From a virus, in the IMG/VR virus record IMGVR_UViG_3300032053_000008: a stretch of 64,000 nt of DNA; one strand, written 5' to 3'. Below, piece by piece: positions 19,239-49,475 of the stretch (position 1 is its first letter; each line of letters begins with the position of its first letter). The notes under the pieces are model-generated. The model was not told the DNA's origin and did no database searches. It saw nothing but the letters and a program-made list of their open reading frames with translations. The translations under genes and the position numbers were made by a program.

Positions 19239-20648
19239 TTATTTCTTCTTTGCTTTAGATGCCTTAGCATCTAAAGCAGCTTTCTTTTCTTTAGCTCTTA
19301 CGAAGTTATGTTTGTCGTCTTCAGCAAACTCTTTAGAATCTTCTTGTTCGCTTGAAACAGATTTATCTGGATTCACAGGGTTAGCCCAAGAATTATCCGA
19401 ACCCTTTTTTTTGTAATATTTAGGTTCCCACTCTTCTTTAACTAATGATTTAACCATATCCTTAGACCAGAAAGTACCCTTAGAGTTTTCCTGTTGTCCA
19501 CCTGAACCGTTTTGGCAATCTTTTGGAGCTTCTACAGTTTTAGGTGGGCAATTTGTCAAGTTTTTAGCTAACTTGATTAACAAAAGCTTAGAAGGATTAG
19601 AAATAAGCTTTAAGTCTTTGTTCTTTTTGTCTTTTAATGGCATTGCCATGATTTGCAAAGTCTTTTGCAGACTTTCTGCATATCCGGTACCCATTTCACC
19701 AGCTGCCTTGCTTAAAAGGAGCAGTTCATTTTTCATGAACTCTGGGAAACTGACAGCAAATTGGTCCCATTTAGCAAACTTAGGGATAAACGGGCTAAAA
19801 ATTTCTTTTTTAATAATTTGACGATCTTTTGCCGCAGTAAGATCTTTATCAATCTTTATTGCATGCATGTCTTGAGAATGTGCTTTTATTCTTGCAGTTC
19901 GCAGATCCCAAGGTCTCCCCTTTACTTCACCTCCACGGCTTTTAGCACGGTCTTTTGACTGATTTTTTTCCTCTGTTAAATCTGCATCCGATTCATTAAC
20001 GCTACCCTTGTTCATCATTCCCTCAACTGAAGACTCATTAGAAGGTATCATAGAAGCATCTGCTTTTACAATAGCTTTTTTAGAGGCTTGCTGCCGAGAC
20101 TGAATAGTATCTAGGGCAGTAGTTGGACCTTTAGGGGCGGTTGGTGCTGGAGCTGGAGCAGCTCCTTTACCATACAGTTTAGCCTTAAGGGCTTTAGTGT
20201 TGGCAGCTTGAGCGATAGGATGATTCATGTCTTTATAGTTCAAAACAGGCGCATTGGCTTCATTTGAAGCAGGTTTGGCGTTCATTTGCTGATAATTCAG
20301 AGTATTTCCAGTAGGTTCCGGTTTTTTAGGAGCTGGATTAAGTAAAGACAAGTCAGACTGTGGTTTATTGGTAGCCATGGTTGCTACTGCGGCTTGACCG
20401 GCTGGACTGGCTACGGCAGGCTTAGCTTTATGGGTAAGTGCATCCATAGCACTTTGAGCGGCTGGATTAAGACTAGCTTTAGCCATAGTAGGCTTAGGGG
20501 TAGCCATAGCTGCCGGAGCTTTTGGGGCAGCCGGAGCTTTTATTGCTGGAGCTGCTGCAGGCTTTGGAGCCGACATTTTAGGGGCAGCTGGGGCAGACGG
20601 TGCCGCTGGAGCTGTCGCTTTAGGCATACTTGGTTCTGCGGGTTTCAC
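19239..20648 (-). CDS. Low-complexity Pro/Ala/Lys-rich protein, probable internal head protein
   Basis: GTG start with AGGAG RBS; disordered composition; many hydrophobic-x-K-[A/S/G/N] motifs. Confidence 0.55.
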   Translation of the reverse strand: MKPAEPSMPKATAPAAPSAPAAPKMSAPKPAAAPAIKAPAAPKAPAAMATPKPTMAKASLNPAAQSAMDALTHKAKPAVASPAGQAAVATMATNKPQSDLSLLNPAPKKPEPTGNTLNYQQMNAKPASNEANAPVLNYKDMNHPIAQAANTKALKAKLYGKGAAPAPAPTAPKGPTTALDTIQSRQQASKKAIVKADASMIPSNESSVEGMMNKGSVNESDADLTEEKNQSKDRAKSRGGEVKGRPWDLRTARIKAHSQDMHAIKIDKDLTAAKDRQIIKKEIFSPFIPKFAKWDQFAVSFPEFMKNELLLLSKAAGEMGTGYAESLQKTLQIMAMPLKDKKNKDLKLISNPSKLLLIKLAKNLTNCPPKTVEAPKDCQNGSGGQQENSKGTFWSKDMVKSLVKEEWEPKYYKKKGSDNSWANPVNPDKSVSSEQEDSKEFAEDDKHNFVRAKEKKAALDAKASKAKKK

Positions 20649-20695
20649 GTAAAACTCCTAGAGATAGAAAACCATGGATAAGATTAAGTTAAAAC

Positions 20696-23356
20696 TTAGA
20701 TCTTTGTGGACTTACCAGACGGAAGCATTTTGACCGCCGATAAATCGCTAGTATGTTGATTTTTAACGGGTATTTTGTCGTATAGCATAACTGAGTTAGC
20801 GAAAGTAGGGGACTCATGTCCGCTAGCTTTCCAGCCTTTATACCCCATAGACTTCAGTTCATTGTGGACCAGGTCTGGGTGACTAAGCGCGTGTTCGCTT
20901 GGTCCGTAGTGCTCTTTGTGCTTGTCTTTTACCTTGGCAAACACTTTGTCTGGGTCTTTGGACAAATCGTAGATGTCTTTGTCTTTGACTTGTATATGGT
21001 ACCTGGACAAGTTGTTGAACATTTGTTCAGCGTCTTCTCCATTAGATCCGTAAGTATGCAAATAGTTTGCAGGTTTAAAACCTGGCATATTATGGTTAAG
21101 GTATTCCCGGCTTTGCTGGATACGGGCCTTTTCTTTGCCTGCCTGACCGGTAAACTGGAAAGATGGGTCTAGGGACTGAAGGTCTGGATGCCTACTAAAA
21201 TGGACTAGATCTAGCACCTTAAAATTATCTTCAGCTTTGGATATTTTGTCCCAAACACCCATTGCTGCGGGGGTTTGAAGCGAGGAACCTAAAACCTCTT
21301 TACCGGAAACTTTTTGGGCATGTTGATACATTGCAGTTGCCAGCCCTTTTCTTTGATGTTCAGGGAAAACATTAGTCATACCAGGCATAAGTTTATTTTC
21401 ATGGAGTTCGTGAGGAACAATTATGGTATGGCCAACTATCTGACCTTGTGGACTTTTTGCATAAACGTGAAGTTCATCGTGCTCTTCCTTGTCAGACAAA
21501 TCTTCATCTTGATTTGCCTTCCATTCATGAAAAACATGATAACCTTCTTTTCGCCAATCACCATTTTGGCCTTTTTCTAAGTCTTCAGCTTTAGATATAG
21601 CTTCAGACACCTTGCGATTGTGTTTTGTGTTTGACATCACAGCCAAAACAGCTTCAGTCAGGTTTTGGCCCATACCTGCCGTAAGGTTAATAGAATACTT
21701 TGTTTCCAATTTGGTCATAAAGTCGTAAAGTTCAGATTTTTCGGTAGGCGGCAGTGTAAATATAAAATCGCTACCAGCAAACCCCAGGAAATCTCCTGCG
21801 TGCTCTTCTATAAAAGACTCTATGTCTATTTTGATGTGTTGCAGCTTTTTGATTTTGTCGGTTAGCTCTTTTGTGCTGTTAGATTCCAGGGAGTCAACTA
21901 TGAAATCATATATGTCCTGGAAAGACAAACACACGGTAACCGGTTTGTATTTTTTGTCTTTTGGGTGACTTTTTTCTAGGGACTTAAAAAGCTCTTCGCT
22001 TGGCTTAGGCCAGCCAAGGTTTACCATAGTTTCTATGGCTATTTGCCTTTGTTCGGATTTACCAAAAGGACGATTTTTTTGACCCCATAAAGCATAAGCA
22101 TCCTCTGATTGTTGACCATCAGTACCTCTAATCTTCTTACCAGTTAACTTTTCTGCCATTACATATGCCGATGTTGCTAACCCTTTACGTTGATGTGTAT
22201 CTTCGGTATCACTATTAACAATACCCAGATGTTTTCCAGTATGATCGTGTTCGAAAATATAAAGCCCTGCCAACTTACCGCTTGGATGATAGGCATGAAT
22301 AATTACGCCATATTTATTAACTTTAGGGGTAAGTTTATAGCCTTCTTTTTGCCAATCACCATTTTGACCTTTTTCTAGGTCTTCGGATTTGTTAACAATA
22401 CCTTTACGCTTAGCCATTTCTCCAGCCCATTTGCTGACGTTTCTGTCTGGATCTCTAAGGCCCATCTGAACCGTGGTTTCATCTGCACCAGGATGAGACA
22501 ATAAAAGCTTTTTTATTCCCCACTTAGGATGGTTCATCATAAAGTTAAGTTCAGCAGGTTTATAGTTTTTATGTTTAGCCATATAAGGGGCTGCTGCAGC
22601 ACCATGAGTATGAGGGGCACCAAAGTCACTGTTAACTATGTCGGTAGTTGGGAACTTGGTGTTGTCTCTAGGCACATTTTTGTGGGGGCTTACAATAAAT
22701 TCGTCTTCGTGTCCGTGACCGGCTGGATCTGTGTCAGGGTGACCTAACTCATAGCTGAACCAAACGTTCTTTAAAGGAACGTGCTGGTGATGTTCATGTT
22801 GACCAAATTGTCCTTGAGTTTTGTCGGCTATGGAATACAAAGCATGGTCATCTCCCCTTTGGCTTGGGGTTATGTTCATGTTCCTAGCCAGACGCAAATG
22901 GGGGGTACCATTAAGTTGGTCTACGGCCTTAGGGGCATTTTGGGTAATAGTGTCATGCAAGCTACGCTGGTGAGCTAGTAGCTGCGGAACAATATGAGGG
23001 TTTTGGGCTAGACCGGCGCTAAGGCTATCTGTAGTTATGTGACCAATCTTTTTCGCGGCATTGCCTTGTTGGTGATGACTCAAAAACGCCTGGTCCATCA
23101 TTTTTTGTTGGTCTGGCTTAGATGCCGAATAAGCGTCAGCATTTTCAGATCTGTGGATAGCGTACTTTAGCAAAAGAGATGAAGGTGAATGGGGAGAATG
23201 CTTATAGCTAGAATACATCTCATTTAGTGTAGCATTTGGCTTAAAGTGCGGCGTAGGTGCGCTAATAGGCAAACTAGAATGGACCTGTAGCCCAATTTGC
23301 TTGTCTTGGCTGGTACTAGAAGACAATGCACTTGGGTGTTTAGTCATCGTTATCAT
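20696..23356 (-). CDS. Polyvalent multidomain protein: ART-like, HEAT, GNAT, mCpol-like, GNAT, ART-like
   Basis: Two HQRKGLAT acetyl-CoA motifs; R...S...EDEFIV ART pattern; AGMGQNLTEA mCpol-like motif; C-terminal HFS..LDP..GYKG pattern. The GNAT calls are firmer than the others. Confidence 0.7.
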   Translation of the reverse strand: MITMTKHPSALSSSTSQDKQIGLQVHSSLPISAPTPHFKPNATLNEMYSSYKHSPHSPSSLLLKYAIHRSENADAYSASKPDQQKMMDQAFLSHHQQGNAAKKIGHITTDSLSAGLAQNPHIVPQLLAHQRSLHDTITQNAPKAVDQLNGTPHLRLARNMNITPSQRGDDHALYSIADKTQGQFGQHEHHQHVPLKNVWFSYELGHPDTDPAGHGHEDEFIVSPHKNVPRDNTKFPTTDIVNSDFGAPHTHGAAAAPYMAKHKNYKPAELNFMMNHPKWGIKKLLLSHPGADETTVQMGLRDPDRNVSKWAGEMAKRKGIVNKSEDLEKGQNGDWQKEGYKLTPKVNKYGVIIHAYHPSGKLAGLYIFEHDHTGKHLGIVNSDTEDTHQRKGLATSAYVMAEKLTGKKIRGTDGQQSEDAYALWGQKNRPFGKSEQRQIAIETMVNLGWPKPSEELFKSLEKSHPKDKKYKPVTVCLSFQDIYDFIVDSLESNSTKELTDKIKKLQHIKIDIESFIEEHAGDFLGFAGSDFIFTLPPTEKSELYDFMTKLETKYSINLTAGMGQNLTEAVLAVMSNTKHNRKVSEAISKAEDLEKGQNGDWRKEGYHVFHEWKANQDEDLSDKEEHDELHVYAKSPQGQIVGHTIIVPHELHENKLMPGMTNVFPEHQRKGLATAMYQHAQKVSGKEVLGSSLQTPAAMGVWDKISKAEDNFKVLDLVHFSRHPDLQSLDPSFQFTGQAGKEKARIQQSREYLNHNMPGFKPANYLHTYGSNGEDAEQMFNNLSRYHIQVKDKDIYDLSKDPDKVFAKVKDKHKEHYGPSEHALSHPDLVHNELKSMGYKGWKASGHESPTFANSVMLYDKIPVKNQHTSDLSAVKMLPSGKSTKI
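21539..22390 (-). repeat. Two copies of K[S/A]EDLEKGQNGDW[Q/R]KEGY (22337-22390 and 21539-21592)
   Basis: 16 of 18 residues identical; each copy directly precedes a GNAT domain. Confidence 0.95.
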
Positions 23357-24455
23357 CCCCTATAATAACATGATAAGGGTCTTCTATTGGGCCGTCACCT
23401 AAAGTAGGGAAATCACTAGTAACTTGCCAAGATGGATTGTTTGGCTCGATAGGGTCAGTCAAACTAGTGCGTGGCTTATACCCAGCCCATCTACCTTTGT
23501 TATTGGGTCCATTAGGCCCATCTTCTATAAGAACTTGTCCTGTAATTACTTCCAGTTTAGGGGCAGCATGTTTAATCCAGGTGATTGGTACTACACCAGT
23601 CAAGGTTATATACCTAGAAAAAACAGTGTCGGCCTGGAAAGAATTATTTCTTTGAAGTGCGCTAGATGAAACTTTGGACAGCTCAAAAAGGCGACCTTCT
23701 AGGTAAGACTCTTTATATCGCATCAGGCAATACATCACAACCTGCCACATCCATATACAACATCCAGCATCGCCATTAGCATGACAAGCTATGGTGTAGC
23801 TTTCATTAATAAAAGAGATTTCTTGGTCTAGATTCCATACACCAAATTTGGTTCTGATGTGAGACCTGGAAAAGTTCTCCCTTAGATCAGGAGCTATTCT
23901 AAATGAATTGTTTCCGGTAACTTCGTATATTACATAAGCTTTATTGGTTTTGTTGGCTACCAGAAATTGGCCTTCTCTGATATTAGCCATGCTAACCGTG
24001 CTAGGCACAATAACTATACCAGTTACAGTGTCATAAGACTCTACGCTAAATGTAGGGGTAAGGTTTCTGGCATTTGTGACAATACCAGTTGGGTCAAATG
24101 GATCTATAAGCCTTTGGTCGCCCAAAGAGGTGCGGTCCATAGCTTCACTGTTGTCATTATACGAAACAATAATACATGGCACCGGAACCGTGTCGGCTAT
24201 ACGGTAAGCCAATAAAACAGGGATTTCATTATTTAAAAACCAGTTAGAAGCAGCTTCTACTTCTTTGTATCCATAGTCCTTAGAAGCAAGATAATCTTGA
24301 GCTAAGGTGCTAAATATGTCTTCAACTATCCACTTGTTTTTACGCAAATCCGCAATAGACGCTTCAAGCATCGTTTTTATCAAAATATCACTAGATAAAA
24401 CACCCATTATGCGCCCCTGAAATAGTCTTCTAAAGACTTTACTATTTTGTCCCAT
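23340..24455 (-). CDS. Neck/tail-completion-like structural protein
   Basis: Position in the neck cluster; start probably at the internal MGVLSSD; VFSRYITL resembles tail terminators. Confidence 0.5.
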   Translation of the reverse strand: MGQNSKVFRRLFQGRIMGVLSSDILIKTMLEASIADLRKNKWIVEDIFSTLAQDYLASKDYGYKEVEAASNWFLNNEIPVLLAYRIADTVPVPCIIVSYNDNSEAMDRTSLGDQRLIDPFDPTGIVTNARNLTPTFSVESYDTVTGIVIVPSTVSMANIREGQFLVANKTNKAYVIYEVTGNNSFRIAPDLRENFSRSHIRTKFGVWNLDQEISFINESYTIACHANGDAGCCIWMWQVVMYCLMRYKESYLEGRLFELSKVSSSALQRNNSFQADTVFSRYITLTGVVPITWIKHAAPKLEVITGQVLIEDGPNGPNNKGRWAGYKPRTSLTDPIEPNNPSWQVTSDFPTLGDGPIEDPYHVIIGDDNDD

Positions 24456-25258
24456 TCTTTAGTAGCATAATCGTATGCGGCAGGAATACTGTGAAGAGGT
24501 TTAACTTCGGGGTACATCCACCTTCCCTCTGCCTCATGCTTGCTACTTACAACCCTAAATGTAACTACTTCTTTTTTGACCTTACCTCTTTTAGATGGTC
24601 TTTGGACCACAACTCCACCTGACAGATAGTGAGCACCTTCGTAGTTTGGTAGCCCTAGAGCTTCAGCTTCATCAGCTGTACGCCCTTTAGACCGGTATTG
24701 GTATATGTTGTCGCTAGCCGGGTCATTTAACTGAGGGATGTCTTTTAGCCTGTTAACTATGCCAATCATTGGCATTCCATCGGGGCCTTTTTCGATTTTA
24801 CGCATACTGACGCCATTTGCCTTAAGGGAGGCATCTATAGCTTCTCTCATACCAGAAGGAGTGGTCAGAGCGTTTTTGTCATGGCTAAAAGGTATGACCT
24901 TGAATTTACTGCCATCTTTGGCAGTCTTAAGTCCCGGACCTGGTTTAAGCAGCCAGTCTTCTGTTGCCATACTCACGGCTGGCCTACCGCTCTCGACCCA
25001 CTTAGCTGATTCATCGATTTCTACTACCCACATATTCTTAGAAACTTGTATCCATCTGATATTGCTACCATCTTCACCTAAAAATGCTTCTAGTGGGTAA
25101 CCTTTTAAGTGGTCCTGAGCATACTTGATAATAAAAGCGTGGGTGGAAATAGAAAGGGCCTCTACAGCCCCATTCAATTTCTTTGCTACCTCTTTTTCTA
25201 CAACACCTAGCTTATCAGCTATTTCTTTGTAGTTAGCCCTTATGGTAAAGTCGGTCAC
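24407..25258 (-). CDS. Neck/tail-completion protein
   Basis: KTAKDGSKFKVIPF and TFRVVSSK..W.YP motifs, as in SPO1-like neck proteins. Confidence 0.6.
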   Translation of the reverse strand: MTDFTIRANYKEIADKLGVVEKEVAKKLNGAVEALSISTHAFIIKYAQDHLKGYPLEAFLGEDGSNIRWIQVSKNMWVVEIDESAKWVESGRPAVSMATEDWLLKPGPGLKTAKDGSKFKVIPFSHDKNALTTPSGMREAIDASLKANGVSMRKIEKGPDGMPMIGIVNRLKDIPQLNDPASDNIYQYRSKGRTADEAEALGLPNYEGAHYLSGGVVVQRPSKRGKVKKEVVTFRVVSSKHEAEGRWMYPEVKPLHSIPAAYDYATKEWDKIVKSLEDYFRGA

Positions 25259-26472
25259 TGCTGCTTAGCCTTTTGTTGTTGATTGTTGGCTTTTACCGAT
25301 ATATCAGTACCATCGGTAGCCTGAACTTGGCCTGAGGCCATTGAGCGCCATACTTCTTTACCGTTTACCAGAACTTTTTTGTAGTTGCCCTTGCGGGTTC
25401 CAACAGGGAAACGGATACCAGACATAGCCTGAGGACCAGAAGAACTGACGCCCTTTTTTTCTAGGTCTTGTTCAGATTTTTGAACTTGCTTGGCGCTGGT
25501 GATCAATTTCTGGATCATAGACATAGTTTGCTGGAAAGCTTTAGGGTCCTTGCTGGCCATAGCCATAATCTGAGGTATTTGCGCCTTAACGTCTTTAAGT
25601 TTGTCCATTAATTCTTGGTTGTGGTCGGCGGTAGCTTCTTTGGTAGCATCATCGACTTCTTGAGCTACTTCTTGTGCTGCCTGTTCTTGTTCCTGTCCGT
25701 CACCTTCGCCCTGTTGTTGTCCAGGTGCCTGTTGTTGTTGAGGCTGACCACTAAGTTGACCAAGCAAATCAGTAGTATTGGTATTAGCATGGGCATCTGG
25801 GTCTTCCTGGCCTTGCGGCTGTTGTTGTTGCTGGGCTTGTTGTTGTTGCATCATTTGCTGTTGTTGTTGAGCGGCTTGTTCGATTTCCCCGGCACCAAGC
25901 ATTTCATTTATGGCTTGAATAAACTGGGCTTCAGCGCTAAAACTTTCTTTTAGAGACATACGCTTGGGCACTGGATTAGATTTTTGGTCTATAACTTTTT
26001 GGTAAGGCTTGTCATCTGGCTGTTCTGGGTCAAATAGGTTGGTAGGCAAACTGACGTTTTGATTTATGTTTGTTCTTGAATTGGAAGTTTTTGTAATTTT
26101 TTCTTGGTAAGTATCTGCCGGATTAAAAAGTTCAACTTTACCAGTTTTATAAGATTTCTTGGCAGCCATTGCCGCTTCTTGGAAATCTAATCCAACACCA
26201 ATAGCCAGTCCATCTCCAGCAGTTTCGGTAAAGTTTTCAATTAAATTAGGTAGTTCTGCCGCTACATCAATAGGTATTTCCATAGCTATAAAGTCTGGAT
26301 TACAAAATGGCATAGATCCACCGTGGGATTCCACAGTAGATTTCATTTTGTCTATAAGTCCCTGTAATTCAAACTGATAATGGTTGGCTACGCTAAATCG
26401 GCCCTCTTTGGCCGAATTAATTAGTTTGTCTCTTACTGCATCCGCAAATATAACTGCCCATACCTTACTCAT
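25255..26472 (-). CDS. Protein with N-terminal mCpol/GGDEF-like palm domain and Gln-rich linker
   Basis: AIGVGLDFQEAAMAAKKSYKTGK; polyQ; KSEQDLEKKG motif near the C-terminus. Confidence 0.55.
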   Translation of the reverse strand: MSKVWAVIFADAVRDKLINSAKEGRFSVANHYQFELQGLIDKMKSTVESHGGSMPFCNPDFIAMEIPIDVAAELPNLIENFTETAGDGLAIGVGLDFQEAAMAAKKSYKTGKVELFNPADTYQEKITKTSNSRTNINQNVSLPTNLFDPEQPDDKPYQKVIDQKSNPVPKRMSLKESFSAEAQFIQAINEMLGAGEIEQAAQQQQQMMQQQQAQQQQQPQGQEDPDAHANTNTTDLLGQLSGQPQQQQAPGQQQGEGDGQEQEQAAQEVAQEVDDATKEATADHNQELMDKLKDVKAQIPQIMAMASKDPKAFQQTMSMIQKLITSAKQVQKSEQDLEKKGVSSSGPQAMSGIRFPVGTRKGNYKKVLVNGKEVWRSMASGQVQATDGTDISVKANNQQQKAKQQ

Positions 26473-26476
26473 ACGC

Positions 26477-27592
26477 TCACCTGTATTTTGTATTCAGCTT
26501 GTTTTTTAAGGTTTCGACAAAAGCTTCAATGATTTCTGGATCTGCTTTTGAACTAAAACTTATTTTATATCCACCAGATGTTTTACTCAACCTTAAAAAC
26601 GCTTTATTTTTGTTTTCTTGGGAAGTTACATAAAAACAAGCACAAGGGGAATATTTTGGGCCAGACTCGGACTTAGTAAACTCAGGAGTTTTGCAATGAG
26701 GGCAAGGAGCGTATAAATCTGATTCGCTTATTGTGATTTCCGGCTCTTTTTTCTCTAGTTGAGCTTTAGTAAGATAGTTCCTGAAATAAGTGGCTGGTGT
26801 AGATGTAGGTTTGGCAGGTTTAGTGGCTGCGATGTTGAGTTTGTGTTGGATCATGGCCGGATTTTGTGCGGTATCGGCTTTTGTTTGCCCTTTGGTTTGC
26901 TGGGTAACTTGTTTGGTCATTGCCGCTTTAGGGTCTCTAGATGGAGCTGTTGCTTTAAGTGGAGCTACCGGTCCGTTTGGGGCAGCGTGGCCACTTGGGG
27001 CACCAGTTTCGTGCATTCCAGCTTTTTCAATCTTTTCTTTAGAGTCTTCCACCGCTTTAGCGGTAAACTTTTCGTCCATTATTCGATCAATAACTTTACC
27101 AAGAATTTTAGTAACTTCCACCATTGCATTAATGGCAGTGTCGGACTGTGGCATAACTGGCATATGAATATCTGAGGCAGACATCAAGGCCGCTGGCAAT
27201 TCACTAGAACCAGCTTTTTTGCCGTCATAGTCTTCAGTCATGGACATCAAATGTCCGCCAAAGGCTGGCAAAGTTTGGTTTTCAAAGGAATGGACAATAT
27301 GTCCACCTTTTATGAATTGGGCAGTATAGGCATCTAGGCCAGTTTTATTGACTTGGATCTTTAGGTCGTCTAGGCCAGGATAAGATAAAACCTTTTCGTC
27401 ACCTGGGTGCATAGGCTTAATGGAAGATACTAGCCAGGACAATATGGTTCTAGGGACAGCTAAAATAGGCAGATACATATCAATAGGAGACAAAAGAGAT
27501 TTGCTGTCCCTACGATACATAGTCTTACTTAGCGTTTCAAAGCCGTCATCGCCAAGCAAGCTTTTTAGTAGTTTTTCTGCCTTAGTGTGCAT
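26477..27592 (-). CDS. Hypothetical head-cluster protein with C-terminal Zn-finger
   Basis: CPHC...CAC; disordered linker bounded by IEKAG and LTKAQLEKKE. Confidence 0.6.
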   Translation of the reverse strand: MHTKAEKLLKSLLGDDGFETLSKTMYRRDSKSLLSPIDMYLPILAVPRTILSWLVSSIKPMHPGDEKVLSYPGLDDLKIQVNKTGLDAYTAQFIKGGHIVHSFENQTLPAFGGHLMSMTEDYDGKKAGSSELPAALMSASDIHMPVMPQSDTAINAMVEVTKILGKVIDRIMDEKFTAKAVEDSKEKIEKAGMHETGAPSGHAAPNGPVAPLKATAPSRDPKAAMTKQVTQQTKGQTKADTAQNPAMIQHKLNIAATKPAKPTSTPATYFRNYLTKAQLEKKEPEITISESDLYAPCPHCKTPEFTKSESGPKYSPCACFYVTSQENKNKAFLRLSKTSGGYKISFSSKADPEIIEAFVETLKNKLNTKYR

Positions 27593-27595
27593 TTA

Positions 27596-27991
27596 TTACC
27601 CAAGGTAAGAAGAGTCTGCCACGTCAAAAATAGCGGCACCAGAACCAGATACCTTGTAAGCATAAATTCCAGGAGGAACTATCAAATAAGTATAGTCTAA
27701 GGGACGCAAAGGGTAGCCTGTTCCAAGAGCGGCCACAGCCGTACTTGTTCCATCATCAAAAGCCACATAAAGAGCGGTAGCCAATGAATTGAAAAAGCAA
27801 ACCATTTGACCTGGAACTGCAGTTAAAGTGGTAAAACTAGTTGAAGCTAGCCCAACAGGAATCATTAACCCTTCAGAATTAATGGATTTTGAGGCACCAG
27901 CTTCATCGTTATAGCGCATTTCAGTGTTGCTATAACCACCAGAAATCTTGTCTGTTAGTTTTTTTCTTTTTAAATCAGTAGTATACGACAT
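27596..27991 (-). CDS. Hypothetical virion protein
   Basis: GGGAG RBS; preceded by the AATCTTACCCTTA element. Confidence 0.6.
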   Translation of the reverse strand: MSYTTDLKRKKLTDKISGGYSNTEMRYNDEAGASKSINSEGLMIPVGLASTSFTTLTAVPGQMVCFFNSLATALYVAFDDGTSTAVAALGTGYPLRPLDYTYLIVPPGIYAYKVSGSGAAIFDVADSSYLG

Positions 27992-28007
27992 TTAGATAAA
28001 CTCCCTA

Positions 28008-28021
28008 TAAGGGTAAGATTA
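28008..28021 (-). promoter_or_regulatory. Candidate phage late promoter TAATCTTACCCTTA
   Basis: 14-nt identical copy at 38618-38631; both sit just upstream of an RBS; shorter AATCTT cores precede other structural genes. Confidence 0.55.
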
Positions 28022-37520: not shown

Positions 37521-37538
37521 GCTACGCGCTCCTTAAAC

Positions 37539-38628: not shown

Positions 38629-41600
38629 TTAAGTAACTGGCTTTTTCCACATCATAAGACTGTTCTTACCAAACGGTCTTTTACTAACTTTTTTGGCCGT
38701 ACCGCTGTCAAAATTCTTTAGCTTATGGTAGTCGGTCTTAGTCCAGCCATTTTCTGGTGGATAGTGGATGTACATATGCTGCAGCCATTGCGGGTAAGGC
38801 TTAGGGTCATTCATACCAGACATATAAGCTCTAACATCGTGTCCATGCATATACAAACCTTTGACACCGGCCTTTTTGGCTGTGTCATTAACGGCTTGGT
38901 GCGCGGCATCTAACCACCCAGAAGTTAAGTCTTGGATTTTTTTAGCATATTTGCCAAACTCTTCTATTGAGTAACTTTTACCGTTTATTACAATAGATTT
39001 ATGGCCTTTTTTGGCTATATCATCCAGCTCTTTTCTTAGACCAGCCGAAAAGTCTGATTGAGTCTCTTCAATTAGCCAGTTTTCTGGATCTGATGTATCC
39101 ACCCTAGCCCAACCTACTGTATAAGGACCATTAGGGTGATCGCTGTATCTGCCAGATTCATTTATGTAGTCGTAAACGTTCTTTAGGTCTTTGTCTTCAA
39201 TAATAGCTTTTTGGAGTTTTTCGTTAGCATTAACCTGAACTACTAAATTGTTTTGGTCAGAGTGTCTTTGGGCTCCATCCCATTTAGTGTAAGTAACTTT
39301 GTAATTGTCCTGGTTATTAACTATAGCTTTGTTGACTAGCTCTGGAGTCATTGTGTGCTTTGGTGATGCCAAAAAAGCGTCTTGTATCTTTTTGTTGTTG
39401 GCTAACTTAGGAGCAGTCCGTTTAAAAGTGCCCCAATCCATACCTTCAGGTGGAATGATGGAACTAAGCTCCTGGAACAGGTGCCCCGTCTTAGATGCAT
39501 TTACCGACGAAACAGTTGGTTGCCCTTTGATGTTTAGATTTTTTGTGTCAGGTATCCTTGGAGTAAGGTCGTTAAACATGTTGAGGCCATGAGGAACAAC
39601 ATTAAAAACTGGGCTCCACTCTTTTCCAACTTCAAAAACATGGTCATAGGTTGGATTGTTTCTCAGTCTGGTCCTTAAATAGTCAAATTCTGTTTTTGTC
39701 AATTTAGGGTTTTGGATAAGTGTATGGGTGTCATAGCTACGGTCAAAAAGGTCAGCTATAGATTGTTTGGACAGCTTATCGGATATTACTAAATCTTTTA
39801 AATTTACATCAGGGATATCGTAAAGGTTCTTATGGAAAAAAGCTTCCGATTCTGGTGAATCTTTTACAAATTTATAAGTTGACGGGTCAAGATCGCTTAG
39901 ATGCTCTGCTTGAAACTGTGGGCTACCGCCACCAGCCTGAACTATATCATCAATAGCTTCCGGAAGCTGATCGATTTGTTTATCTGTTAAGTGAGGGGCT
40001 ATTCCCTTCAAAGATCCAGTATAAAGATGTCCTACCGTTTTACTTCTTAGAGTTTTAGCCCATTGAACCCATTTGTCTATAGCTTCCGAGATATGACTTG
40101 GGTCCATTTTTCTGACTACATCGGAAACATGTGACATCATTTCATTAGCTTCTGATGCACTCATGTCTATGCCACTAATAACATCAGGTATGGGCATGTT
40201 GTCTGGATGAATCTTTTGGTGTCTTAGCAAAAACATACCGTTTGGTTCACTAGCCATCTTACGATGGACAGACGGACTAAACTCTGCATTTGATGCAAAT
40301 TTTATATTAAAATCGGGATCATAGTGATTTTTTGTAGCTTCTAGAAGTTTATCGGTATTAGGACCTGTCAATTTCACATCATTGAGTTCTAGTTCTCTGT
40401 CAAAAATGTTTTCGTAAATTTCATCCGATATGCCGTCATTTCGGATATGATCGGCAATATGACCCAGAAGATCGTTAGATGTCTGAGCGTTTGTTTGGCT
40501 TTGTTTACCATTACCAGACTTTTGCAGATACTGGAAAAGGTAGTCCATGCTTTGGTCATACAAAAGTCTTTGTCTTTTATCTTTGTCGTTTACCATTTGG
40601 GAAACAACATGGTCCATAACTGTTCCCTGATTAGCTTTTTCATCTGAGGCGCTATTGATAAGTCTGGTTAAACTTCCTGCGTCAAGTTTGGAGTTAAGAT
40701 GACTAGCTAGTTTGGTAGAATACTCTGGACCCATTTTGTCAGCATTTTGTTTAAGCAATGGATGAATATCGTCCCACTGCATTAGGTCTGCAGGCAAAAT
40801 GTCTATGGTTTTGTCTACTAATTGGGCAAAACCGTCTTTACTTAGTTTAGAATAGCCAGAGTGGATTACACTAAGAGCCTGATTAGCGTTGTTTATATGA
40901 GGTATCAACTTAATGGCCAAAGAAGGGTTAATGTTTTTAGCTATAGGGCTGTTGTTATTAATTTCCTGAAAAATATCATTAAGTTGGCCAAATTGTTTTT
41001 CGTTAGCATTGGCAGCTTGGCTTGAACCTAGCAACTTAGATGCAGCAAAAGACTCCAATTCACTCTTATTGGGCAAACCTGTACCTTCCGAAGAACCTAA
41101 AAGGCGACTGGTTACATCCAGGGAAGTAGAATAAGACTTACCGGTAATTTCCCCAGGCTTGTTCATAATAGCTTCGGCGGTGTCTTCTGGGTTCATTTTG
41201 CCGCTAGTATGAAGCATAGACAAAGCTTTAGACCACTGGTCATCATCAGACATTACATTAAGAAATGACTTAAGCTGAACCGAGTTTGATTTTTTCTTTG
41301 TTTCAAGTATCTTAGGGATATCTTTGACAAATTTTGCTTGAGCTTCTGGCGAGGCAGTTCCATCTGGAGTGTGGCTAGCCATTTTGGCTGCTGTGCCATA
41401 GTCTCCTAGTTCTAGTGCTTTGTCGGTCATATGACTAAAAACCGGTCCTTTGGATGCTTCTGGCAATTTGTCTACTATATTAGCCACTAAGCTGATTTTC
41501 TTAGGGTGTTTTGCTATAAATTGGTTAATAGCATCCATAGCAACAGCATGGTGCTTTTGTTCTGAATAGTTTCCTTCTACATCAGTAAAAGCCTCTTTGT

Positions 41601-44418
41601 TGCTTAAGGATTTGGCTACCAGTTTAGAGGCATCTAGTTCAGTTTTACCGGCACCAATAAGTTGACCTATTGTTTGGGAAATTTCTTGGTCACTGGCTCC
41701 CTTAAAGACATCGTTATTGCGTAAAATATCGTCAAGATATTCTGTTCCGGTGTCTTGTTTGTGGAACTTCATCAAAGAGTCTAAATACGGCTTTATGTGA
41801 CCAAAAGGTTTATCGGATTTAAAAGATCTACGGAGTTCTGTTGCAAGCATGTCTTCGTTTTGATGAACATGCTTGGCTGTTTGTTGGTCATTTAAAATGC
41901 CATACTTGTGCATTTGCTGTATAATCGGATGACCTTCTGGTGCTGTGTCTATAAGATCTGACAACAAGTTTTGATGTTCTGGTTTCGGATCATATCTATT
42001 AAAAACAGCTGAATAAGCATCATGCCGATTTTGACCAGAACTGTCCAAAAAGTCATGTAAAAACTGCTTTTTTTCTTGATCAGGCAAGTTACTTTCATGC
42101 AAATTTGGAATCAAATTTCTAGTATATGCGCTAAGCTGTTGAGTTCCTGGCATAAATTCGTCTTTGTCGGCACCAGCCTTTTGGCTAAGCGACTTTAAAT
42201 GTTCCCGGTATTGCGGGTCTTCCAATACGCCTGGAATTTCAGTCATCTTACTAGCAAGACGAGATGCACTTTGGGTGTCACCGTTTTGGATTTCTTGGGC
42301 CATAACTGAGTTAATATGGTGCATCAGTTGAGGAGTTGGCTTGTTGTCCTGGATCATGCCAGACTGTTCAAGGTTTTTAATAAGGTAGTATTCGTTAAGG
42401 TTGTGACCTTCGGTGTTGCTCAAAACCTTGGTAATCTCTTGGTCGTTAAGTTTGTGTGGGTATTCATTTTCATGGTATTGGTCTATCCATGCGTCAGAAT
42501 TTTGGCGAATTTTTTGGTGATGATCTTCGTTTAGGTAGTCAATATTGGCAATAGCAGACATGGGCAACCCATATCTTGGGCCATGCTTAATTGTTGTGTC
42601 TATGGCGTCATGTATGAGATCGTCTCTTTTTTGGCCACGGTCCATGTTGTCCATATGACTAACAAATGATCTATGAACGGTAGGACTAGCTAAGGTTTGT
42701 CTCATAAAACCTTCACCCTTTTGTGCGTCAACTTTTTTAGCTATTTCAGCCCTAACGCTTGGAGGAAGATTATTGTTTTCCATCATTGTGTGTAACAGTC
42801 TAGGCAATACAGAATAGTCGTCTTTTTGCAACGCCGCGTCTGTTAGGTCGTTGGCTACTTTTGGTGAATAATTACCAAATCTTATTACTTTATGGCTTAA
42901 ATCATAGTCATGTTCACCAAATTTAGTAACAATATCAGACATATTGTCCTTGATGCCCTTGTCAACTACTTCTTGGACTCCTGGATAAGAGTTGATCATT
43001 TCTAAATCTGATAAGTTTCCGTCTTTTTTAATAGTTTCCAAGCTTTTGTGTAGCTTGTCACCAGATAAAAGGCCGCTTTTAATGGCGTGATTCAAAATGT
43101 TATATTTGTCATTTGAGGTGCCATGAGGCATAGACAGAGCTTTGTCTACTCCAGCTATAACAGTTTCTTTGTGGTCAGGATTTTCTGCTATTCTTTCACT
43201 TATATCATATAGATCAGGTTTGCCGGTTTTAATATGATCGGCTGCTACACTATCTGGCAAATGTTTGCTGTGAAAAGCTTGTAGGGCTATTTCTTGGTCA
43301 TCTCCATCTAAAGCTTTTCTAAGATGATCTTGGTTGTCTGTAGTTCTAATTATCCTAGATCTAGTTTCTTTGTCGCCATGGTTAAAGGCGTGGTCAACAA
43401 TATAAGAAGGTGATTCTTTATAATATTTTTTGAATGCATGCTTGTCCTGGATTTCTCTAGGTAACGTCTGGAAAAGCTGCTCTTTGTCTTGGTCAGATAG
43501 CTTAGGGTGTTCGGTGACGCTATTATAACCGTGCCGATAAAGCTCCGCCTCTTGGTCTTTTGTTAGATTTTCGTTTTCCTGGAAGTTTCTAATGGCTTTT
43601 TCGTCGCCGTTGCGTAAAAAACCCTTAAACATTTCGTCAGGTATTCTGGCGTGAGCCTGGGCTGCTGAAGAAATGTCTTGTCTGTCACTTTTAAGTGATT
43701 TGGCTACATAGTTTGCTGGCAAGTTTGGGTGCGCAATTAACGAATTGAATCCCCTTGTTTCACCTTTGTCAATAGCTTTGTCGGCTACGCTAGTTAAAAT
43801 CTCTGGCGGCGAGTTTTGCTGTTCACCGAAAAATCTCATGGGGCTATAGTGGTGCTGTTCTACGAAATCTTTGTGATCTGCTAGCTCTTGGGCCGTGTGT
43901 TGAATTTTTGGTCCAAGGCTTTCATCTATTATGGTTGAGATGTGTTCAGGGTAAGAATATGCAGGTCCAGCTTCGCCAGCAGCTAACCTTTGGGTAAAGG
44001 TGCGTAGCTCTGGTAGTGGCATATGTAGGGTATCAATTTGTGTGTTATTGTCTTCAGATTCTTGGTTTTTTTTCATAAAAGCTATAAGCTTGTCATGATC
44101 CAAGCCAGGGGTATCCGCAACTCTTTTAACGGTTCTTGTTACAACATCTTTAGGTTCTATTGCACCGCTATTATACTGATCCATAAAATGGTTAGAATGG
44201 TCAGCATCATGCAAGCCACTATTAAAAGCGTGAAAAAGTAAAGAAGGTTGAATTTCTTTATTTTCAGGCTTCCAGGCGGCAGTATATAGTTTTTGGGTGT
44301 GGCTTTTGTCCCAATTGTCGGAACCAGAAACGGCTATTAAATGTGAGCTATTTTTTGTTTGAATATATTTGTCAATAATGTCGTGAATCTTTTCGCTTTT
44401 TTCTGGTGTATCAGTCAT
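38629..44418 (-). CDS. Giant helical-repeat protein with C-terminal EETQSD (GNAT-fold-like) domain; probable internal virion protein
   Basis: 1929 aa, His/Asp-rich; HPNLP/HPKLS/NPKLT helical repeats; C-terminal GWARVD..LIEETQSD..AKKAGVKGLYM. Confidence 0.55.
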   Translation of the reverse strand: MTDTPEKSEKIHDIIDKYIQTKNSSHLIAVSGSDNWDKSHTQKLYTAAWKPENKEIQPSLLFHAFNSGLHDADHSNHFMDQYNSGAIEPKDVVTRTVKRVADTPGLDHDKLIAFMKKNQESEDNNTQIDTLHMPLPELRTFTQRLAAGEAGPAYSYPEHISTIIDESLGPKIQHTAQELADHKDFVEQHHYSPMRFFGEQQNSPPEILTSVADKAIDKGETRGFNSLIAHPNLPANYVAKSLKSDRQDISSAAQAHARIPDEMFKGFLRNGDEKAIRNFQENENLTKDQEAELYRHGYNSVTEHPKLSDQDKEQLFQTLPREIQDKHAFKKYYKESPSYIVDHAFNHGDKETRSRIIRTTDNQDHLRKALDGDDQEIALQAFHSKHLPDSVAADHIKTGKPDLYDISERIAENPDHKETVIAGVDKALSMPHGTSNDKYNILNHAIKSGLLSGDKLHKSLETIKKDGNLSDLEMINSYPGVQEVVDKGIKDNMSDIVTKFGEHDYDLSHKVIRFGNYSPKVANDLTDAALQKDDYSVLPRLLHTMMENNNLPPSVRAEIAKKVDAQKGEGFMRQTLASPTVHRSFVSHMDNMDRGQKRDDLIHDAIDTTIKHGPRYGLPMSAIANIDYLNEDHHQKIRQNSDAWIDQYHENEYPHKLNDQEITKVLSNTEGHNLNEYYLIKNLEQSGMIQDNKPTPQLMHHINSVMAQEIQNGDTQSASRLASKMTEIPGVLEDPQYREHLKSLSQKAGADKDEFMPGTQQLSAYTRNLIPNLHESNLPDQEKKQFLHDFLDSSGQNRHDAYSAVFNRYDPKPEHQNLLSDLIDTAPEGHPIIQQMHKYGILNDQQTAKHVHQNEDMLATELRRSFKSDKPFGHIKPYLDSLMKFHKQDTGTEYLDDILRNNDVFKGASDQEISQTIGQLIGAGKTELDASKLVAKSLSNKEAFTDVEGNYSEQKHHAVAMDAINQFIAKHPKKISLVANIVDKLPEASKGPVFSHMTDKALELGDYGTAAKMASHTPDGTASPEAQAKFVKDIPKILETKKKSNSVQLKSFLNVMSDDDQWSKALSMLHTSGKMNPEDTAEAIMNKPGEITGKSYSTSLDVTSRLLGSSEGTGLPNKSELESFAASKLLGSSQAANANEKQFGQLNDIFQEINNNSPIAKNINPSLAIKLIPHINNANQALSVIHSGYSKLSKDGFAQLVDKTIDILPADLMQWDDIHPLLKQNADKMGPEYSTKLASHLNSKLDAGSLTRLINSASDEKANQGTVMDHVVSQMVNDKDKRQRLLYDQSMDYLFQYLQKSGNGKQSQTNAQTSNDLLGHIADHIRNDGISDEIYENIFDRELELNDVKLTGPNTDKLLEATKNHYDPDFNIKFASNAEFSPSVHRKMASEPNGMFLLRHQKIHPDNMPIPDVISGIDMSASEANEMMSHVSDVVRKMDPSHISEAIDKWVQWAKTLRSKTVGHLYTGSLKGIAPHLTDKQIDQLPEAIDDIVQAGGGSPQFQAEHLSDLDPSTYKFVKDSPESEAFFHKNLYDIPDVNLKDLVISDKLSKQSIADLFDRSYDTHTLIQNPKLTKTEFDYLRTRLRNNPTYDHVFEVGKEWSPVFNVVPHGLNMFNDLTPRIPDTKNLNIKGQPTVSSVNASKTGHLFQELSSIIPPEGMDWGTFKRTAPKLANNKKIQDAFLASPKHTMTPELVNKAIVNNQDNYKVTYTKWDGAQRHSDQNNLVVQVNANEKLQKAIIEDKDLKNVYDYINESGRYSDHPNGPYTVGWARVDTSDPENWLIEETQSDFSAGLRKELDDIAKKGHKSIVINGKSYSIEEFGKYAKKIQDLTSGWLDAAHQAVNDTAKKAGVKGLYMHGHDVRAYMSGMNDPKPYPQWLQHMYIHYPPENGWTKTDYHKLKNFDSGTAKKVSKRPFGKNSLMMWKKPVT

Positions 44419-46643: not shown

Positions 46644-46645
46644 AA

Positions 46646-47401
46646 TTAACCTCTTTGTTCGGAGTATTCATCATACCCAAAACCCTTGAAAGTTATAGTA
46701 CCGCGAGCATTAAATCCATAGCCTGGCGGCAACATTGACAAAACGTGTCTACAGTGAGGGTGAGTGCAGCCAACAGTGGCTACCGGATTACGCCAGTCTT
46801 TGTTGTAGCCATCTTTAAGTTCCGACAGTTTATATACTTTTGGCACATAAAGGTCATCGGTGTGCCACAGCTTTTTGCAATTTACGCACAACTTAGCGTC
46901 TACTACACCAAGTTTCATTACGGTTGGGTCATCTTCCCCAATAGAAGCTCCAAGCTGTTCAATACCGGCTCTTTCGGCGTAAGCTTGGACGTTCTTTATT
47001 TCTGTGTTAAGGACGGTGCTGACATACTTAGAAGCTTTGTCCATACCGTCTCTGACTAAGCCTTCAACCTGGTCTAATTCTATGCCTTGTTCTGCAGCCA
47101 TAGTCAGATTGTTGATGGTCTTCAGGCGCTCTGCGTCCAGGTAGTTGGCGGTGATTTTTGCCATGCTTTTGATGCGCTTTACGTCTACTTTGGCATCTGG
47201 ACCGTACATCATGCCGATAGTATAGCGATAAATTCCTTCCATAGAATCAATCGGGTCTTGATCACGGATTATTTCAAAATAGATCGCTGGGCCACGGAAA
47301 AACCTTCCTAACAGTCTCGCCTTGAGTCTGTTAAAAAGGTCGTTTACGTGGGCTTCGATTGCCTTTTTTTGATTATCCGTCAACATCATGGTCGTGGTCA
47401 C
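46646..47401 (-). CDS. MuF-like head morphogenesis protein
   Basis: TE..., CVNC, HPHCRH; directly follows the portal. Confidence 0.7.
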   Translation of the reverse strand: MTTTMMLTDNQKKAIEAHVNDLFNRLKARLLGRFFRGPAIYFEIIRDQDPIDSMEGIYRYTIGMMYGPDAKVDVKRIKSMAKITANYLDAERLKTINNLTMAAEQGIELDQVEGLVRDGMDKASKYVSTVLNTEIKNVQAYAERAGIEQLGASIGEDDPTVMKLGVVDAKLCVNCKKLWHTDDLYVPKVYKLSELKDGYNKDWRNPVATVGCTHPHCRHVLSMLPPGYGFNARGTITFKGFGYDEYSEQRG

Positions 47402-49475
47402 AATCTTCGTGGTCTTCGTTTTTAGCTAAGGTGCCGTTTTGGATATCTGCTACAATCTTTCGTACAGCTTTTTCCGAATCTTTACGCCACGCTAGAAGAT
47501 TTTTGTCCACAATTTGATTGTGTCTAGCTAGAAGCATTTTGCTGATAGCTGTATGGTTGGTTTCCACAGACTTGTTAAGTTCAAAAAAGGTAGCGGCCAG
47601 TTCGCTTTTTTGAGCTGGTTGACCAGTATCCTGGTCACCAGAGGCTTCCTGACCACTATCCTGTCCATCTTGGCCAGGTTGCGGCTGTTGCTGAGGCTGT
47701 TGCATCTGCATAGCCATTTGTTGGTTTTGCATGGCCATTTGGGATTTCTGGATAGCTAATTGCATCTGTTGGAAATAGAAAGGATCTCTGATGTAGTCGT
47801 ATCTTGGATCTTGGGCTGCCCCTTCAATGCCAAAAAATGCTTCCATCATAAAACCGACTGTAAGGTATGGAGCAACACTGGTTTGCCATTGCTGGTTCAT
47901 GATAAATTGACCGCCAAGCTCTTTACCGAGAACTGGCTTTTCTACAGTCTTAAGGATATCATCCATGGTCATATGGACGTTCATATCCTGGCTAAGACGA
48001 GTAGATTCTTTTTCTGGATCGTCTTGTTCCAAACCAGCTAAAATAAGCTGGAACTCTTTACTGAACTCTTCATCAAACTTAGGCAAAATGTGTGTGTTTA
48101 GTAAGTCCTGGATATCATACATCAAAGGACGTAAACCTACGTCACGAGCGGCGATAAGTTTGTATTCATTGCTGGTTTCTGACAAAGTCTGAGAGTTAGA
48201 GCCACGGCTAAGGTGGGCATAACCTGGCAATTCTTCTGGTGACATTTGGAATGCACCAAGAACTATTCGAGCCGTGTCGTCAGACAAAAACTGGAACTCT
48301 TTGTCTCTACCAGCAGAATCTGTGGTCTGGAAAATAATGTCGTCTTCGCTGCCGATACCAAAAACTGGCATACGGTAACTGTTTTTGACCGAGTTAATAC
48401 TGGCATGGAACTGGTTACGGATCTTTTGGATCGTGCCTTCGTCTATGTCATCAGACTTAAAGACCAACATACCCCTAGCAGCTCGACCGTTTTCAAAGAA
48501 CAGTTTATTCTGGAGGGAAATGCTGATATGGGTAATAACGGCGTTAAGGGCCTGGTCGATAGGGGTTAAAGGGTAGCCGTTGTATTCAATATTGGTTGTT
48601 GGAAATATGTTGTACACAACCAATTCTTTTTCGGTGAACACTTGAACTGGGGTACCATTGATAACCTGGACCCATTTGTATTCATCTTTTTCATATTTGG
48701 AAATATCGAACTTTTTGTCATCAAGTTTTTCCAACATACGCATAGCAGCAATACGCTGTTCTTGGTCATGGCTAGCGCTTGGGATAATACGGTAGATAGT
48801 ACCAGCATCTACTGCCCTAAATGCCACGCAAACGTTTTCACCACGGTCGGTGTCATTAGCGTAAATAAATTCGGTAGCTGACCGACCAAAAAGGAGGGCA
48901 TCCCTGGTGGTCATCTTAAGGAACTGAGACAAGTTTGGATGCCAGTCTTCTATGACTCTGTTTGACCCACAGTTCCACATCACTTCTTTGATTTTTTCGA
49001 TGCGTTTTTGAATTTCTTTTTGCTGGTCTGGAGTTTCATGTGGTTCTGGATGCATTTGCTGGAATTCAAAGCCAACGCTAAAGCGGCTAGTTCTAGGACG
49101 ACCAAAAGACGCCAGAGTATTAGATCTAGCTTGCAAAATTTGGTTAACCAGGTCATCACCTTGAGGACCAGCAATACGCTTAAGGATAGGATCTGGGGTT
49201 AGGTTGGTTTTTTGGCGGTAAGTAGATACAGTTCCAAGGTTGGCATCCCTTGGGTCAAGAGTAAAAGCTAGGCGAATGTCATGTTCCCTGGCTTTTTCAC
49301 TCTTACGCAAAGAATCTAGAATCAACTTAAGGCTTCCACCTTTGTCGTCTTGAGGTTCTTTTTCGTCAGCTTCCATAGCTTTAGCTATTTTGTAGCTATT
49401 AGCATCCAAGGCAAACACCTGGGTTTGATCTTCCTTAGCTTTTTTAGATTTATTCAGGAAGTCCGAGCTATCCAT
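47373..49475 (-). CDS. Portal protein
   Basis: VDAGTI, GYPLTPI, FFENGRAARG, AFQMSPEEL, GLRPL motifs; between terminase and protease. Confidence 0.88.
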   Translation of the reverse strand: MDSSDFLNKSKKAKEDQTQVFALDANSYKIAKAMEADEKEPQDDKGGSLKLILDSLRKSEKAREHDIRLAFTLDPRDANLGTVSTYRQKTNLTPDPILKRIAGPQGDDLVNQILQARSNTLASFGRPRTSRFSVGFEFQQMHPEPHETPDQQKEIQKRIEKIKEVMWNCGSNRVIEDWHPNLSQFLKMTTRDALLFGRSATEFIYANDTDRGENVCVAFRAVDAGTIYRIIPSASHDQEQRIAAMRMLEKLDDKKFDISKYEKDEYKWVQVINGTPVQVFTEKELVVYNIFPTTNIEYNGYPLTPIDQALNAVITHISISLQNKLFFENGRAARGMLVFKSDDIDEGTIQKIRNQFHASINSVKNSYRMPVFGIGSEDDIIFQTTDSAGRDKEFQFLSDDTARIVLGAFQMSPEELPGYAHLSRGSNSQTLSETSNEYKLIAARDVGLRPLMYDIQDLLNTHILPKFDEEFSKEFQLILAGLEQDDPEKESTRLSQDMNVHMTMDDILKTVEKPVLGKELGGQFIMNQQWQTSVAPYLTVGFMMEAFFGIEGAAQDPRYDYIRDPFYFQQMQLAIQKSQMAMQNQQMAMQMQQPQQQPQPGQDGQDSGQEASGDQDTGQPAQKSELAATFFELNKSVETNHTAISKMLLARHNQIVDKNLLAWRKDSEKAVRKIVADIQNGTLAKNEDHEDCDHDHDVDG

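Follow-up and report, generated by a model that had tools for sequence, protein, structure and literature searches.

A lysine-centred peptide recurring in the head-cluster proteins of an Mx1-like myovirus is probably the cleavage site of an assemblin-fold prohead protease

In the uncultured virus record IMGVR_UViG_3300032053_000008 of IMG/VR (136,843 bp, estimated 84% complete; a large myovirus), a short peptide of the type Lys-Ser-Glu (KSE) recurs in proteins encoded by the head gene cluster. The window analysed here is a stretch of 64,000 nucleotides corresponding to bases 40815-104814 of that record. The recurring peptide is probably the recognition and cleavage site of the phage's own assemblin-fold prohead protease, with the bond cut after Lys. 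The core site would read hydrophobic(P3)-x(P2)-Lys(P1)↓Ser/Ala(P1′)-Glu(P2′), the arrow marking the predicted cut, with a variant K↓T/A-L in the capsid protein and in the linker of the protease itself.

Copies of the peptide had been listed in a sequence-only reading of the window; all of them were located in the genes it had named, and their coordinates (Table 1) were confirmed by back-translation. Within the record, 25 head-cluster genes (9,761 amino acids, aa) were compared with the 113 other genes (33,810 aa), the expected values being those of per-protein shuffles. The long form K[SA]E.?DL.K was found five times in the head cluster (0.02 expected) and not at all in the rest of the genome, and a six-frame scan of the whole record returned only the same five places. 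The tripeptide KSE occurred 15 times in the head cluster against 3.3 expected (7 versus 7.0 in the rest), [LIVMF]xK[SA]E 13 times against 1.7 (5 versus 3.8), and [LIVMF]xK[ST] 54 times against 26 (72 versus 73). An excess over a Lys-rich background, a check set beforehand, was thus seen in the head cluster and not in the remainder of the record. KSE ranked third among the over-represented tripeptides of the head cluster, after the low-complexity QQQ (15 versus 2.5 expected) and QQM. The loosest forms (hydrophobic-x-K-T/G/N/Q) were enriched about 2-fold, and about half of such single hits correspond to the chance expectation. Per-protein shuffles, together with control patterns that were permuted or substituted, ruled out an artefact of composition or low complexity. 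Paralogy of the tagged proteins was likewise rejected: an all-versus-all BLAST found a single similarity, between the capsid N-arm and the protease, so the earlier description of these proteins as unrelated stands. Not every head-cluster protein bears the motif. The excess was concentrated in the scaffold (5 hydrophobic-x-K-[ST] versus 0.4 expected), the protease (5 versus 1.3), the portal (6 hydrophobic-x-K-[ST] versus 1.4) and a few small proteins, and there was none over shuffles in a 1929-aa protein (6 versus 5.2), a 251-aa protein, a 469-aa P/A-rich protein or the neck proteins.

Among the phages of the collection, Myxococcus phage Mx1 was the sole cultured relative, with a syntenic head module and 55% identity in the capsid protein. 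A capsid-protein profile recovered 80 related viral loci (capsid identity 50-69%, contigs up to 182 kb), and these uncultured loci, taken as ±10-kb loci, made up the clade set together with Mx1. The gene order on the minus strand of the window (terminase, portal, 251-aa protein, protease, ..., scaffold, capsid protein) is also that of loci L003 and L005 and of Mx1. Among 1,539 non-redundant proteins of the related loci, the exact pattern was 7.05 times as frequent as in shuffles. The excess fell to 1.56 times when Lys was replaced by Arg and to 1.6 times when Glu was replaced by Asp; three permuted orders gave 0.66-0.89 times, and placing a charged residue at position -2 gave 0.69 times. A logo of 540 distinct sites had L (.45), M (.23), I (.15) or V (.11) at -2, then Lys, then S (.73) or A (.27), then Glu, with no information content beyond -2 to +2 and no conserved leader or targeting element. 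By protein family, the clade counts were 146 sites versus 6.7 expected in the scaffold, 93 versus 12.2 in the protease, 13 versus 2.3 in the portal, 9 versus 0.7 in the family of an 886-aa accessory protein, 10 versus 1.7 in that of the 371-aa protein starting at 26477, and 10 versus 1.1 in kinase-bearing proteins, where the sites lie just upstream of the kinase domain. No excess was found in the capsid body (4 versus 2.8) or the terminase (3 versus 1.8); the 1929-aa family had 1 versus 2.8, and the neck and tail families had about 0. Mx1, whose head module also encodes a "nucleotide cyclase", a 1479-aa "NUDIX hydrolase" and a "kinase", has two sites in the portal, three in the scaffold, three in the NUDIX protein and one or two each in the kinase and several others, against a single site (1.4 expected) among the 38 genes of its 40-90-kb region. 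Four-way alignments that included Mx1, and for the scaffold also L003 and L005, with a background identity of ~30%, kept K238-S-E and K275-S of the scaffold and K206 and K285 of the protease invariant. As judged from these comparisons, the motif is conserved in exactly the proteins that prohead proteases usually cut.

The residue following Lys bears on another explanation, in which K-S-E would be a phosphorylation site for the PI3/4-kinase/HipA-like kinase of the window. The kinase gene lies in the same cluster and the Ser is followed by an acidic residue. However, Ala occupies the central position in 27% of sites, and Gly and Thr are also enriched there; this tolerance indicates that a small residue is required rather than a hydroxyl. 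The capsid site, moreover, has A or T followed by L. Phosphorylation is therefore extremely improbable.

The five long-form peptides differ in their synonymous codons and have unrelated flanks, which points to a constraint on the protein rather than on the DNA and excludes a DNA-level repeat as their origin. With only four examples among the 540 sites of the ±10-kb loci, the long form might have been taken for an oddity of the window; this was overturned by homologues of the 886-aa protein and by the spacing of sites. A second hydrophobic-x-K-[SAGT] lay exactly 6 residues downstream in 50 of 687 first sites, compared with 10-14 cases for each of the spacings 5, 7, 8 and 9. In the 886-aa homologues, K[SA]E[ED]LxK made up 25 of 85 sites, including junctions before non-GNAT sequence, and the tandem arrangement recurs at the first scaffold site of several relatives (e.g. 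K-S-E-G-L-S-K-A and K-A-E-S-L-A-K-S). Because of the 6-residue spacing peak and the junctions in the 886-aa homologues, KSEDLxKG is best read as two tandem sites six residues apart, hydrophobic-x-K↓S-E-D-L-x-K↓G. The suggestion of a capsid-targeting code was not supported: two tandem sites explain the long form, and no leader is conserved outside positions -2 to +2.

The candidate enzyme is a 555-aa protein encoded between the portal and capsid genes. It had no match among Pfam or PDB sequences, and its domain was identified by fold search only. The AF2 model of residues 1-185 had a pLDDT of 89.9, with confidence dropping past about residue 160, where the protein's own sites start. In Foldseek, the matches listed to rank 25 were all herpesvirus proteases (probabilities 0.87-1.0, E from 7.5e-4) and T4 gp21 (5jbl) came at rank 27, with modest TM-scores of 0.36-0.46. 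On this model, the N-terminus (residues ~1-160) is predicted to have the assemblin/HK97-gp4/T4-gp21-type fold. All 41 homologues keep H42 and S120, the latter in an S-x-E-G motif, which makes these two a candidate catalytic pair. The gene is present in 70 related loci (for example at 12880-16599 in L006, i.e. Mx1, and at 2037-6758 in L055), on the strand opposite to the capsid gene in about half of them. Its product ranges from ~400 to 1573 aa (1239 aa in Mx1), with a conserved N-terminal domain and highly variable C-terminal extensions; in the window copy, the sites lie in a linker between the two (Table 1). Residues 206-231 copy the mature capsid N-arm right after the conserved K206 (K-T-L-T-A-G-x-Y-N-A-A-P-S-T-L-x-Q-G-S-A-L-Q; 56% identity over 41 aa, BLAST E 2e-8). 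Mx1 and many clade members have this copy as well, in each case after a Lys; by mimicking a capsid subunit, it may fix the protease or the C-terminal extension of the protease in the shell.

Two ClpP-family proteins are encoded next to each other between the neck and capsid genes, and both keep Ser/His/Asp-like motifs. They could be the enzymes that cut the sites in place of the assemblin-fold protein: their Clp_protease matches are clear, and some other phages have prohead proteases of the ClpP/S49 type. However, the surroundings of the capsid gene contained homologues in no more than 5 and 3 of ~80 loci, and no ClpP is annotated in the Mx1 head module. Genes seen in three to five loci are unlikely to explain a code that is clade-wide; the assemblin-fold protease is found in 70 loci and itself carries conserved sites. 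Cleavage by the ClpP pair is very improbable.

The position of the cut was approached through the capsid protein, in which L12-V-K14↓T15 is the candidate maturation site. In 50 distinct capsid N-termini, Leu(-2) and Lys(0) were invariant, the preceding 8-13 residues were variable and the N-arm after Lys was strongly conserved (A/T-L-E-A-G-x-Y-N-A-A-P...). The protein is homologous to SPO1 gp6.1 (9vel, phmmer E 5e-16), which reads ALNK-ALEAG at the homologous place, and to the capsid protein of Staphylococcus phage phi812 (5lii, E 1e-5), whose K24 (V-V-K-S-F-Q) aligns with K14 of the window. The PDB chain 9row_B, which is the same phi812 protein, covers 439 of 463 aa and begins at S25, which indirectly suggests a mature N-terminus directly after the Lys homologous to K14. 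The idea of a common protease-recognition code, put forward from the letters alone, is well supported, on comparative grounds, by the residue specificity, the conservation across the clade, this capsid position homologous to the mature phi812 start, and the adjacent assemblin-fold protease.

The same protease and motif could also be imagined with the bond cut after Glu (K-S-E↓), in the manner of L/I-x-E↓ in T4 and S/A/G-x-E↓ in phiKZ and SPN3US. The Glu of the scaffold and cargo sites varies no more than the Lys, T4 gp21 shares the fold and is specific for Glu, and most capsid proteins of the clade read K-A-L-E-A-G, which would fit A-x-E↓. The capsid protein and protease of the window, however, read K-T-L-T-A-G, and this lack of Glu speaks against a Glu-P1 cut like those of T4 or phiKZ. 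In addition, the mature phi812 chain starts right after Lys and continues S-F-Q, without Glu; scaffold sites of Herelleviridae read K-S-L/F; and P3 would be inconsistent, being Lys in the scaffold but Ala in the capsid protein. A cut after Glu is quite unlikely.

Besides the long form, the scaffold carries short forms, five sites in all, and the scaffolds of relatives carry 6-17 each. The portal has its sites in the N-terminal extension and the C-terminal tail, and roughly half of the related portals, as well as that of Mx1, also have C-terminal x-S/T-K-S-E sites. Low-complexity linkers, Q-rich or P/A-rich, were seen just upstream of several sites, in the portal C-terminal tail (47600-47700), in the 405-aa protein and in mid-scaffold.

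The 886-aa protein gave Pfam matches to GNAT at residues 604-685 and, weakly, to mCpol at 481-575, and has four junction sites against 0.17 expected. Its 41 metagenome homologues (P0002-P0041 among them) are mosaics with 94 sites versus 7.1 expected; each spans only 12-45% of the query, and together they reshuffle GNAT, PI3/4-kinase, NUDIX, mCpol, PF18905 and ParB modules. GNAT modules end in ...Q-P-N-R-P-F-G-K↓S-E and start with (K↓S-E)-(D/E)-L-x-K↓G-x-x-G-D-W. A site lay within 6 residues of the N-terminal border in 49 of 50 GNAT hits in homologues, and exactly at the C-terminal border in 44 of 50.

These placements also bear on whether the motif is left uncut and recruits proteins to the prohead as an element for docking or structure (for instance a tag that binds capsid or scaffold, or a coiled-coil helix cap). 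The flanks contain much E, K and L and have a helical look, scaffolds are the densest carriers, and around the N-terminal tag the GNAT repeats of the 886-aa protein agree at 17 of 19 residues, BLAST detecting no similarity in the remainder. On the other hand, the motif occurs at the capsid position homologous to a known maturation point; portal end-extensions, the linker behind the protease domain and exact module borders are where cut sites, not binding patches, are typically placed; and the information is confined to positions -2 to +2. Docking without cleavage is unlikely.

If the motif is a site cut after Lys, the protease would act in the assembled prohead, where it would take off the 14-residue capsid leader, chop the scaffold at about five places, enabling its exit, trim the N- and C-terminal extensions of the portal and release itself from its own C-terminal extension. 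Co-assembled accessory proteins, presumed to be present inside the head, would be cut at module borders, the 886-aa GNAT/mCpol protein in particular. Tentatively, the motif might further be a portable junction: mosaic late proteins (acetyltransferases, kinase, NUDIX and cyclase-like proteins, for host takeover or anti-defence) would enter the prohead, where the maturation protease would split them into single enzymes, and would be injected along with the DNA, and a tandem site would then be a high-efficiency junction or the source of a defined hexapeptide. Such proteins recall the "polyvalent" proteins, which Iyer et al. 2017 (PMC5512222) present as long mosaics that combine enzymatic modules of unrelated kinds (GNAT, NUDIX, kinase, ParB and others) and are believed to be delivered together with the DNA; some have C-terminal assemblin-like peptidase domains, and processing during virion assembly was proposed. 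The 886-aa homologues are similarly mosaic, with module combinations that vary between relatives. They differ from that description in having modules bracketed by a defined motif and a protease that is either N-terminal or a separate protein; term searches of that paper turned up neither a junction motif nor Mx1-like phages.

Several points weigh against cleavage after Lys by the assemblin-fold protease. The case for cleavage in this virus, in Mx1 and in the clade is comparative only, and the assignment of Lys to P1 rests indirectly on one comparison, the start of a deposited PDB chain; a literature search found no paper stating cleavage sites for Mx1, SPO1, phi812, A511 or T5. Two predicted ClpP-family proteases are also encoded in the cluster. 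Since the capsid and protease sites of the window are K-T-L and not K-S-E, two site classes must be assumed. Some strict matches sit in folded, conserved segments and are probably uncut, such as an LVFKSDD-type segment of the portal and MGKAE of the capsid protein, whose Lys is not conserved. Finally, the L-x-K-G that opens every GNAT module could belong to the structure of that domain and not be a site.

The remaining carriers are smaller proteins (Table 1). In the family of the 371-aa protein, the relatives and Mx1 have their sites at corresponding positions, around residues 240-300. The 156-aa protein has the motif at chance level (1 versus 0.7 expected) and its family has no strict sites; its listing among the tagged proteins is doubtful. 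Of the 1929-aa protein, only the C-terminal ~350 aa are conserved, in relatives of 2000-2200 aa. The neck genes are also on the minus strand.

Table 1. Genes of the window and predicted sites within their products (window positions; residue numbers refer to the protein)
Feature	Coordinates	Strand	Remarks
Tail sheath	16220..18964	(-)	
Accessory gene block	19239..31164	(-)	
886-aa protein	20696..23356	(-)	N-domain, GNAT 1, mCpol-like middle, GNAT 2, C-domain
886-aa protein, K323	22367-22396		long form VNKSEDLEKG, residues 321-330
886-aa protein, K433	22052-22066		
886-aa protein, K589	21569-21598		long form ISKAEDLEKG, residues 587-596
886-aa protein, K707	21230-21244		
405-aa protein	25255..26472	(-)	mCpol-like N-terminus, Q-rich linker
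405-aa protein, long form	25450-25485		VQKSEQDLEKKG, residues 330-341, one-residue insertion
371-aa protein	26477..27592	(-)	5 sites versus 1.7 expected
371-aa protein, FTKSE	26666-26680		
371-aa protein, IEKAG	27017-27031		weaker
157-aa protein	28984..29457	(-)	3 hydrophobic-x-K-[ST] versus 0.9 expected
157-aa protein, long form	29215-29244		MVKSEDLMKS, residues 72-81
440-aa PI3/4-kinase-like protein	29842..31164	(-)	PF00454 below Pfam cut-off; strict site absent in window copy
Two ClpP-like genes	32500..33096, 33105..33899	(-)	Clp_protease, E 3e-28 and 7e-22
Major capsid protein, 469 aa	35203..36612	(-)	phrog_752 match
Capsid protein, LVKT	36568-36579		residues 12-15, candidate maturation site
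Capsid protein, N-arm	36496-36573		residues 14-39, copied in protease
Scaffolding protein, 302 aa	36612..37520	(-)	directly upstream of capsid gene
Scaffold, K25	37425-37454		long form MKKSEDLSKG, residues 23-32
Scaffold, K153	37056-37070		
Scaffold, K187	36954-36968		
Scaffold, K238	36801-36815		
Scaffold, K275	36690-36704		
156-aa protein	38136..38606	(-)	degenerate sites only
156-aa protein, LAKNE	38361-38375		degenerate
156-aa protein, IAKSQ	38220-38234		degenerate
1929-aa protein	38629..44418	(-)	between scaffold-side genes and protease
Prohead (capsid-maturation) protease, predicted, 555 aa	44976..46643	(-)	fold search; weak phrog_1028 match (head maturation protease)
Protease, IEKT	46149-46160		linker
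Protease, IAKT	46074-46085		linker
Protease, LKKT	46023-46034		linker
Protease, LKKT	45786-45797		linker, followed by C-terminal extension
Protease, copy of capsid N-arm	45951-46028		residues 206-231
Portal protein, 700 aa	47373..49475	(-)	matches portal PHROGs
Portal, LRKSE	49296-49310		N-terminal extension
Portal, AQKSE	47601-47615		C-terminal tail
Portal, LAKNE	47415-47429		C-terminal tail
Terminase	50507..52399	(-)	

The arrangement resembles that of T4, in which an assemblin-fold protease, gp21, acts on one short motif (L/I-x-E) in head proteins; gp21 cuts the capsid protein, the scaffold core and packaged accessory proteins, with sites in gp23, gp22, gp67, gp68, the internal proteins and Alt. 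It differs in that P1 is Glu in T4 but is predicted to be Lys here, and the capsid and protease sites of the window, lacking Glu, do not fit L/I-x-E. T4 cargo also needs an N-terminal capsid-targeting sequence, whereas none is detectable here in the 540 sites or the variable capsid leaders, and the sites of the Mx1-like clade are also found between modules of long mosaic enzymes. Ser at P1′ and a hydrophobic residue at P3 are common to the K103↓S104 cut of HK97 gp5 and the (V/L/I)-x-A↓S sites of herpesvirus assemblin. Herpesvirus assemblins are the best structural matches to the protease domain, but have Ala rather than Lys at P1 and differ in host range and capsid context. In Staphylococcus phage 80alpha, one short N-terminal cleavage signal is common to the capsid and scaffold proteins, and the leader is removed by one host protease; to our knowledge that case, unlike the present one, involves a host enzyme and only two N-termini. 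Publications on phiKZ, 201phi2-1 and SPN3US describe one prohead protease (gp175/gp245) that trims many head, ejection and inner-body proteins at S/A/G-x-E. Motif and lineage differ from those considered here, and the cuts there are supported by mass spectrometry, whereas here the evidence comes from comparison. K-[S/A]-E has its small residue adjoining Glu and so does not fit that code; only the capsid K-A-L-E, absent from the window, does.

Closer likenesses were found in the Herelleviridae (SPO1 gp6.1, Staphylococcus phi812/K, Listeria A511), which have a homologous capsid protein with L/V-x-K↓A/S at the mature start, as judged from the phi812 comparison. In Lysinibacillus phage LysYB2 (Spounavirinae, L085 5412-6939), hydrophobic-x-K-[SAGT] was found 11 times in the scaffold (1.7 expected) and 8 times in the protease (1.3 expected), and the capsid protein reads L-N-K↓A-L-S-A-G. 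From this enrichment, the Lys specificity looks ancestral to the SPO1-like and Mx1-like head modules, and a lysine code may be general to SPO1-like head modules; no published consensus cleavage motif for Herelleviridae was found in the literature search. The Mx1-like clade is set apart from them by its near-obligatory Glu at P2′, tandem sites, tagged multi-enzyme proteins and a protease with long C-terminal extensions. By analogy, the predicted chemistry is nearest to the Lys↓Ser cuts of the HK97 and Herelleviridae capsid proteins. As far as sequence and the structural model tell, this virus shows those features of an assemblin-fold prohead protease with Lys-P1 sites that could be tested, and lacks the Glu-P1 feature of the T4 and phiKZ codes. 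The shared head-protease code of T4 and phiKZ would most likely extend here to a lysine-specific assemblin-fold protease.

With Lys at P1, ordinary tryptic digests would be blind to these natural ends, which should be borne in mind in proteomics. If the motif is indeed a cut site, it would provide a sequence-only rule for the mature protein ends, and probably for the packaged cargo, across a large and almost wholly uncultured clade of 150-180-kb myoviruses whose only cultured member is Mx1. It would also link such a code to mosaic "polyvalent" enzyme proteins, whose means of module separation was unclear. Should the motif prove to be a portable junction as well, it alone could predict the set of injected effectors of this whole uncultured clade.

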